From the NCBI RefSeq assembly GCF_054482525.1, contig NZ_CM137006.1: a stretch of 64,000 nucleotides of DNA. One strand, written 5' to 3'. Made by a program: the position numbers and the translations under genes. The notes beneath the pieces are model-generated. The model saw nothing but the letters and a program-made list of their open reading frames with translations, ran no database searches and had not been told where the DNA came from. Below, one piece after another: positions 16,821 through 17,930 of the stretch; position 1 is the stretch's first letter; each line of letters begins with the position of its first letter.

Positions 16821-17930
16821 AGCAACCTCCGTGAAAATGAATAATAATCCGCACATATTGCATGTACAACATGTCGGGCGGATGAGATAAGCGAGTCGAC
16901 ATCTGGCGTTACCGGGGAATATCAGAAAAATGTCATGGTTATGTGATGATTTAGTCTGGGATTTTACTTCAGAGAAACGGGTGTCTGTTTAGTCAACAAA
17001 ATAATCACAAACGCAACGGATGGGTTCTCGACGTTATTCACGACAGGCTCGTACATTACAGCGAGTAATAAAAAACCTGATATGCAAAGTCAAACCAATA
17101 TTCATAATGTCTTTTTATTCACAACAATAAATAATTCAATAACAATCATTGAAATGAATGATGGTTTGTATAAGGAATGTACGCTACCGCCCAGCCCTGA
17201 TAACATGATCTGCACATTGCCATCTTAACGTCGTTAAACACTGGCTTAATAGTGGATATTTCAAATTAGGAATTTATTAAATTCACCTGATGAATATCAT
17301 AAGCAAATAGCATAGAAAATAATGACAACTCCCCCGAGGGGACCATTTCCAATGCACTGCACCACCACCTGGTGCCCGGATGATCTTGCTTCAGTGGTAA
17401 GAGTACCTGATTCATTGTTCCCAAAATGGTGTTTTCCCCTGCTCCTCCAATAATAATGTGCAGCTCTCACGTGATAATCTATTGATTAGGTTATATTAAG
17501 AATCAATATTTAAAATACATCCATTTTCTTGAGTAAATCAACGTGTTTATTTATCAATTGCTGTTTTAGCTCTGACTCATCAAGCTCTCCATATTTGCAC
17601 TACAGATAATCGCGAATAAATACAGAGAACGCCATTTATCCTTTTAGCATACCTGCAGGATATTTTTATTTGTATTAATATTAATTGCATCTCCAACTCC
17701 GAGCATATCCATCATTAAAATATTTTTAGATTATAGAATGCCTGTGATAACAACTGAAACATCTGCACAATGTGAATAGTTAGTTTCTTTTCAGAGGAAA
17801 TGAAATAGACAAGCTGAATGAAATGGAGAGTGATTAAATTGAATTAAAAAAACATAACATGATTCTAATTAATTACGCCCATCATTGTGGATAAAGTCAC
17901 TGAATAATAAATAATCTTCTGGTATCCCAC

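Follow-up and report, generated by a model that had tools for sequence, protein, structure and literature searches.

The AT-rich interval upstream of vgrG in Escherichia coli PCN033 is a composite that includes a frameshifted yncH

Gene order and composition of the interval

The window, a stretch of 64,000 nucleotides, was matched at 100% identity to the chromosome of Escherichia coli PCN033 (NZ_CP006632.1), and the genes were placed from the PGAP/RefSeq annotation of that strain (window position = locus position + 13699). The genes neighbouring the interval all lie on the minus strand, in the reading order yncG, yncH, vgrG and rhs; ansP, yncE and a gene for a pqqU-type receptor follow beyond yncG. 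The features of the locus are collected in Table 1. In EHEC the island is named the "vgrE orphan locus", z2253-z2262 (PMC5363993; PMC12981562), and in EHEC EDL933 the same island, with vgrG followed by RhsE, stands beside yncH-yncG-ansP.

Table 1. Coordinates of the features in and around the interval (window positions; an arrow gives the direction of reading).
Feature	Position	Strand	Basis or remark
RHS core protein	10491-14645	-	RefSeq annotation
vgrG (historical name vgrE), pseudogene	~14712-16820	-	PGAP, ORF list, alignment
vgrG-linked upstream region	16821-~17325	-	~80% identity to the cusS-adjacent vgrG island
Near-invariant 68 bp directly 5' of the vgrG ATG	16821..16888	-	Ortholog diversity
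Promoter-like TGTACA-16-TATTAT	16868->16841	-	Promoter scan
Inverted repeat ATCCGC...GCGGAT	16883->16847	-	Within the 68-bp stretch
Remainder of the vgrG-linked upstream region, non-coding	16889..17180	-	~80% identity to the upstream region of vgrG at the cusS locus
PhoB ChIP-seq motif TATCAGAAAAATGTCATG	16920..16937	+	Located in the window from PMC10294691
Published sigma70 promoter TTGACT-17-TATTAC	17093->17065	-	Mapped from K-12 (PMC3946193)
48-aa ORF	17082..17228	+	Rejected as gene
Conserved 115-bp block	17181..17295	.	Best-conserved part between island types
Palindrome TTAACGTCGTTAA	17225-17237	.	Inside the 115-bp block
Single-copy segment linked to yncH (3' flank)	~17296-17643 (17326-17643 in the four-part division)	-	Non-coding
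43-aa ORF, holding the 33-aa ORF (17352..17453) as its tail	17322..17453	+	Rejected as gene
GC-rich hairpin CCCCC-GA-GGGG, weakly terminator-like	17329-17343	-	Terminator scan
Frameshifted yncH (DUF5445) pseudogene	17644-17860	-	PGAP, alignment, Pfam
yncG-yncH gap	17861-17930	-	Alignment
Promoter-like TCCACA-18-TAGAAT just 5' of the yncH ATG	17891->17862	-	Promoter scan
yncG (glutathione S-transferase family) pseudogene	17931..18420	-	PGAP, alignment

The interval had been described as an AT-rich, ORF-poor spacer between GC-rich neighbours. Its base composition agreed with that description: the GC content of 16857-17930 was 35.5%, against 50.5% for the whole window, with local values of 0.29-0.39 in the interval, ~0.53 in yncG and 0.53-0.70 in vgrG/rhs. 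Complete ORFs within the interval did not exceed 57 aa (17297..17470, minus strand), and the statement that none reaches 60 aa was correct. The poverty of ORFs is not a distinctive trait, however, and is not beyond chance, as an ORF of at least 60 aa was likewise missing from 29% of first-order Markov simulations of the same composition (n=2,000). Nor is the interval a single spacer. It is a composite of four parts, namely the vgrG-linked upstream region, a single-copy segment, the annotated, frameshifted yncH and the gap between yncH and yncG, and its right edge abuts the yncG pseudogene. Its left boundary had been placed 36 nt off, since vgrG starts at ATG 16820.

The distance from the stop of yncH (17644) to the ATG of vgrG (16820) is 820 bp and was equal in all the intact yncG-yncH-820 bp-vgrG loci that were fetched (strain 142, L011, L013, L015 and L017). 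One source labels L011 as Escherichia sp. E4742. Internal repeats and att-like repeats were found neither within the region nor elsewhere in the 64-kb window.

The start codon of vgrG is preceded by a Shine-Dalgarno sequence, GGAGG, at 16830-16826. The in-frame ATG at 16856 was ruled out as a start by the PGAP annotation and by alignment with the paralog, which is collinear only from ATG 16820 and has 3-bp and 8-bp gaps upstream of it. The gene carries an in-frame TAG at codon 592 (15045-15047) and no indel relative to the intact allele; PGAP labels it "frameshifted", and the alignment shows a premature TAG. In the relatives 1190 and ST2747 vgrG is likewise a pseudogene.

Relative to strain 142 and K-12, yncH has gained 5 bp near 17840 and lost 1 bp near 17717, so that codon 9 of the frame opened by ATG 17860 is a stop. 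PGAP annotates 17644-17834 as "DUF5445 family protein, frameshifted". The N-terminal part of the relic scored 62.4 bits against PF17520 (cut-off 25; E = 3.5e-17), and intact K-12 YncH scored 138 bits. The relic (17644-17860) thus fits the Pfam model and aligns base for base to intact yncH, from which it differs by the frameshift and the early stop. No uninterrupted frame of about 70 codons is present, so this copy of yncH is a pseudogene. This decayed, annotated gene makes up one fifth of the supposed spacer and had been missed in the original prediction. The DUF5445 family is confined to Escherichia; the seven intact yncH alleles gave a pN/pS of 0.80, and the gene thus appears, from these alleles, to be without sign of protein-level selection.

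The lesions of yncG are a 127-bp deletion at ~18050 and a 1-bp deletion at ~18022. Those of both yncH and yncG are private to the lineage of the window when compared with strain 142 and K-12; the two genes are intact in K-12 and are pseudogenes in PCN033. The gap between them (17861-17930) has a 5-bp deletion relative to other strains. Strains 1190 (dog, UK) and ST2747 (Belgium) carry the same pseudogenes in independent assemblies, so the lesions are not assembly errors, and the PCN033 clade carries yncG, yncH and vgrG as pseudogenes only. Gene decay in the island has been described from EHEC as well (PMC12981562). The locus in PCN033 differs from that of EDL933 and from other orphan vgrG-rhs islands in that the inactivating mutation lies in vgrG, not in rhs, and in that yncG and yncH are broken too.

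The vgrG-linked upstream region and its promoters

The stretch from 16700 to ~17325 aligned at 80.7% identity with the DNA upstream of a paralogous vgrG-DcrB-Rhs island by cusS, with sub-blocks of 90% identity at -184..-145 and -304..-265 from the ATG. From this alignment, the segment appears to move together with vgrG as a module. The adjoining DNA behaves otherwise: 17296-17650 was present in 3,575 of 5,426 complete E. coli genomes, in all of them at 90% identity or more and always adjoining yncH, and it had no paralog in any of the 5,426. A 120-bp patch of ~50% GC is included in 17296-17643. The GC-richer DNA at 17300-17450 was considered as a relic of a gene and rejected, the segment being single-copy and without a paralog.

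In K-12, the spacer between b1455 and b1456 is orthologous to 16889-17643 of the window (~95-99% identity). K-12 has lost the 68 bp adjoining vgrG, the whole of vgrG and the N-terminus of rhs, and its deletion junction lies at ~16888. Among six orthologs this 68-bp stretch had a pi of 0.005, versus 0.025-0.05 in the rest of the interval. The pi of the spacer (0.025-0.04) was lower than the synonymous diversity in yncG and ansP (~0.11); such low diversity could reflect constraint or merely recent spread.

The original prediction also took the composition as typical of horizontally acquired, H-NS-silenced DNA that may carry the vgrG-rhs promoter. The K-12 yncH>rhsE spacer is listed as an H-NS-associated 'constitutive promoter' spacer of RpoD (Shimada et al. 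2014, PMC3946193), with a gSELEX binding site of RpoD holoenzyme and an H-NS site determined in vitro; the best-match promoter given for it is TTGACT-17-TATTAC, directed toward rhsE (PMC3946193 Table 3). The same hexamers are found in the window, where a transcript starting from them would have a leader of ~240 nt. The published pair is not conserved in L011/L013, where the spacer has gained 3 nt and TGTTAC stands in place of TATTAC, nor in the cusS-type paralog, which has an 8-nt deletion in the promoter. Promoter-like matches in the region numbered five, below the shuffle mean of 6.7. Two candidate sigma70 promoters with a spacing of 16-18 bp were noted (17093->17065 and 16868->16841), neither of them conserved in the paralog; in the cusS-type sequence TGTACA-16-TATTAT is disrupted.

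As regards other regulators, a PhoB motif (TATCAGAAAAATGTCATG) was reported from ChIP-seq at K-12 coordinate 1527862, with the minimal score of 1, and the same K-12 region is marked there as H-NS-bound in vivo per earlier ChIP-seq (Fitzgerald et al. 2023, PMC10294691 Table 1). A scan with the H-NS 10-mer TCGATAAATT gave four hits, all with two mismatches, which is consistent with AT-richness alone. No Fur box above chance was found in the region, the best match (13/19) being equal to the shuffle median, and GATC occurs there only at 17207 and 17382. A Fur/Dam switch of the type found at EAEC sci1 was accordingly rejected, no Fur box overlapping GATC being present. The supplements of the SMRT-Cappable-seq and PIRT-seq studies contain no entry for the K-12 ortholog of the locus and at the corresponding K-12 coordinates, respectively.

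The distribution of the locus is patchy, the distal segment being carried by 3,575 of 5,426 genomes and other islands occupying the same site in others; this presence and absence, together with the alternative islands, supports horizontal acquisition. Since RpoD holoenzyme and H-NS bind the orthologous K-12 spacer, the reading of the region as an acquired promoter region silenced by H-NS is supported, through orthology to K-12 only. We infer both which hexamers would form the working promoter and that silencing would operate in PCN033. The region resembles those of H-NS-silenced T6SS clusters, such as the main cluster of EHEC, which is derepressed in an hns mutant (PMC5363993), in being an AT-rich accessory T6SS promoter region, with H-NS binding taken here from the K-12 ortholog; Salmonella SPI-6 is another such cluster (cited in PMC5363993). 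No published description of the region upstream of the vgrE orphan locus was found.

The conserved 115-bp block

The best-conserved part of the upstream region is a block of 115 bp; rhsE-type and cusS-type islands shared 93% identity across 80 bp of it, vgrG having a synonymous divergence of 0.21-0.32. Copies of the block at 74-76% identity were found in L008, L009 and L018. In L008 and L018 the copy precedes, by ~250 bp, the first gene in a third type of island; in L009, where the copy adjoins ISEc1, and in genomes like it there is no island. Islands of the PAAR type at the same locus keep only 36 bp (17180-17215), at 100% identity. Some part of the block was present in 97% of the E. coli genomes (5,268 of 5,426). 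When the GTDB species representatives were scanned for an exact pattern, by which diverged copies would be missed, the block turned up in one Escherichia sp. The same scan gave two matches outside Escherichia (Bacteroidales and Pseudomonas), which were taken as chance.

At least four different T6SS cargo islands are swapped at the ansP-proximal locus, with the 115-bp block as their common boundary. It is possible, though less likely than not, that the block is not regulatory but a recombination junction or insertion hotspot, its conservation being due to gene conversion or recent exchange. Homology between the alternative island types of the ansP locus starts or stops inside the block, and the short remnant in the PAAR-type islands fits such a junction. 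Three independent ISAs1-family junctions also fall within 25 bp at its vgrG-proximal edge (~17176-17201), among them that of L006, where the target duplication TAACATGATC lies at 17201-17210. Against this, no second copy or direct repeat of the block was found at the far end of the island in the 64-kb window, and a third island type, which cannot otherwise be aligned, still has the block at 74-76% identity, which suggests that the block's own sequence is under selection. That it serves the orphan T6SS islands of Escherichia as a functional cis element, whether operator, promoter module or nucleation site for H-NS, or as the place where vgrG modules are exchanged, is rather doubtful. The junction reading can stand beside the main explanation for the other parts of the interval, that of ordinary, already annotated DNA.

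Two further readings of the block and of the leader were considered, and both are very improbable. According to one, the long vgrG leader or the block would act as a structured RNA regulating in cis, or else be a gene for a small RNA. A leader of ~240 nt could follow from the published promoter, the block is conserved between the paralogs, and just 5' of the Shine-Dalgarno sequence lies a stable hairpin (-20.9 kcal/mol, z = -1.96). The hairpin is confined to the rhsE type, however; at its position the cusS-type leader gave z = +1.77. An Rfam scan of 16500-18700 returned no family at E <= 1, and the leader, the block and the distal segment folded no better than their shuffles (z = -0.66, +0.66 and -0.07, respectively). 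With two or three sequence types only, the alignment carries no power to detect covariation.

The other would place vgrG-rhs under a sigma54 promoter and an enhancer-binding protein, sited in the block. Control of T6SS genes by sigma54 is established in Vibrio and Pseudomonas, and a gSELEX peak of RpoN at K-12 coordinate 1527534 (30% intensity) maps to ~17258, inside the block. That peak is a weak one, and in vitro holoenzymes also attach to AT-rich DNA without specificity. No sigma54-like motif lies there; when 16801-17915 was scanned for a GG-N10-GC core resembling TGGCACG-N4-TTGCW, the top score was only 7/12.

Candidate small ORFs and the state of the locus

Two plus-strand ORFs had been put forward as candidate genes, and both are present with the sequences given: one of 48 aa and one of 33 aa, which forms the tail of a 43-aa ORF. 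The purine stretch gagggg that had been noted ahead of the 33-aa ORF is also present (17336-17341), at 10 nt from the ATG and not at 12; it is one arm of the GC-rich hairpin at 17329-17343. Both ORFs are antisense to every neighbouring gene.

Allele counts were made with 40-mers, in which every 28-mer seed spanned the variant position. Codon 17352-17354, the start of the 33-aa ORF, read ATG in 38 genomes and AAG in 3,520. The ATG is thus private to 38 of the ~3,575 genomes that carry the segment, a number equal to that of the records at least 99% identical to the window. Strain 142 and L017 keep the frame of the 43-aa ORF open; in 1,823 genomes, K-12 included, it is broken by the loss of one C from CCC at ~17375, and in L011/L013 the ATG of this ORF (17322) reads ATA. 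The 48-aa ORF is open in five of seven orthologs and has a frameshift and multiple stops in L011/L013. In the cusS-type paralog an 8-bp deletion removes its ATG and a further 4-bp deletion follows. All ortholog substitutions in the 33/43-aa and 48-aa ORFs were nonsynonymous and none was silent, in what is a small sample.

Searches of Pfam and NCBIfam gave no match for any ORF of 30 aa or more on either strand, and with one exception each of these ORFs is disrupted in one or more orthologs. A 31-aa ORF on the minus strand (17146..17241), which lies in the conserved block and is intact in 7/7 orthologs, was rejected as a gene because the cusS-type paralog loses both its start, which reads GTA, and its frame, through a 1-nt insertion, and all four substitutions are replacements. 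The reference annotation of K-12 has no small protein in the spacer. In the text portion of the supplement to the Ribo-RET preprint no start site is given at K-12 15272xx-15277xx, which is weak evidence.

That the small ORFs encode real small proteins, the 33-aa one as a lineage-specific new gene, is improbable in the extreme: the ORFs exist, the longer frames stay open in some orthologs and a purine stretch precedes ATG 17352, but that ATG is rare, the starts or frames are lost in L011/L013 and the paralog, the substitutions are all replacements, and the purine stretch is sequestered in a hairpin. The reading frames are not conserved among relatives, the outcome that had been set beforehand as refutation, and the small ORFs are chance ORFs.

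The interval as a whole is probably ordinary, already annotated E. coli DNA in a composite arrangement, with no hidden small genes. The part at 16821-~17325 is non-coding DNA on the 5' side of vgrG that moves with the orphan type VI secretion island vgrG(vgrE)-rhsE. It would provide the ribosome-binding site and one or more sigma70 promoters for vgrG-rhs, and as AT-rich accessory DNA it would be covered by H-NS and kept silent. The part at 17326-17643 is single-copy, non-coding DNA downstream of yncH; 17644-17860 is yncH inactivated by its two lesions, and 17861-17930 is the gap between yncG and yncH. The architecture, the decay of the genes and the non-conservation of the small ORFs were observed directly. 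Because yncG, yncH and vgrG are all pseudogenes, the region in PCN033 probably represents regulatory DNA of a locus in decay.

The components of the interval are an annotated gene remnant and an upstream region, of an orphan vgrG-rhs island, whose association with H-NS was known. RefSeq already annotates the yncH pseudogene, the K-12 ortholog is already in published lists of binding sites for RNA polymerase, H-NS, PhoB and RpoN, and the significance beyond correct annotation is small. The non-conservation of both mini-genes and the recognition of the dead yncH remove a false lead. Specialists in T6SS or genome evolution could find interest in the swap site with its common boundary block and, likewise, in a yncH that appears to be free of selection at the protein level.

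Coding status of yncH and decay of its neighbours

The yncH gene (DUF5445) was found only in Escherichia (157 matches); all 120 matches listed shared 83% identity or more with the query sequence. Across seven intact alleles, pN/pS was 0.80, and first, second and third codon positions held 8/7/9 variable sites; the corresponding values were 0.21 and 24/5/31 for yncG, and 0.02 and 11/0/86 for ansP. The product of yncH may not be a protein under selection; by a rough estimate, however, chance origin of an open 70-codon frame in DNA of 28% GC is unlikely.

In the PCN033 clade (n = 38 genomes), three neighbouring genes, vgrG, yncH and yncG (window 14712-18420), are pseudogenes. 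Further lesions were found in the relatives 1190 and ST2747, namely rhs frameshifts and a deletion reaching into ansP. PGAP lists the vgrG of PCN033 as 'frameshifted', whereas the window copy carries only a nonsense codon.

Positions and contents of the features compared (L numbers, loci from other genomes)
Feature	Position	Description
ansP-proximal content 1		yncG-yncH-vgrG-rhsE
ansP-proximal content 2		yncG-PAAR-VgrG-DUF2169 or yncG-PAAR-VgrG-M35 peptidase
ansP-proximal content 3		176-aa 'Rhs' gene-hypothetical-Vgr-DcrB-Rhs; yncG as relic only
ansP-proximal content 4		without island; ISEc1 adjoins conserved block
yncH copies	window 17644-17860; L002 3942-4154; L003 3753-3965; L011, L013, L015 and L017 3001-3213	
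vgrG lesion	15045-15047	TAG at codon 592
yncH lesions		5-bp insertion and 1-bp deletion
yncG lesions		127-bp deletion and 1-bp deletion
ISAs1-family insertion	L006 1699-3016	10-bp target duplication TAACATGATC (window 17201-17210)
ISAs1-family junction	L009 ~3990	window ~17199
ISAs1-family junction	L010 ~3995	window ~17176

Diversity and breakpoints of the vgrG upstream spacer

Nucleotide diversity of the spacer between yncH and vgrG (16821-17643) was 0.025-0.04, three- to fourfold below the synonymous diversity of the flanking yncG and ansP genes (~0.11). The difference may stem from constraint or from the island having spread recently. Independent insertions of ISAs1-family elements (H-rpt/ISEc1) cluster within ~25 bp along one margin of the conserved block, at window 17176-17210. 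The junction of the K-12 rhsE 'pseudogene' corresponds to window ~16888, upstream of the vgrG ATG by 68 bp. K-12 has lost precisely the near-invariant proximal segment, as well as vgrG and the N-terminal part of rhs.

Alternative islands and exchange of cargo

The ansP-proximal site, which extends from ansP to the far flank (window ~10000-18600), was compared with L008, L009, L010, L018 and L023, and at least four alternative contents were found among different E. coli. Two loci, L011 (Escherichia sp. E4742 in the annotation of one source) and L013, carry yncH and the 820-bp spacer as in the window and, behind them, a different cargo (4035-6213), a 659-aa VgrG followed by DcrB, in the arrangement of the cusS locus, a second, paralogous island. 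The same upstream sequence joined to different cargo indicates that the vgrG upstream region and its cargo recombine independently.
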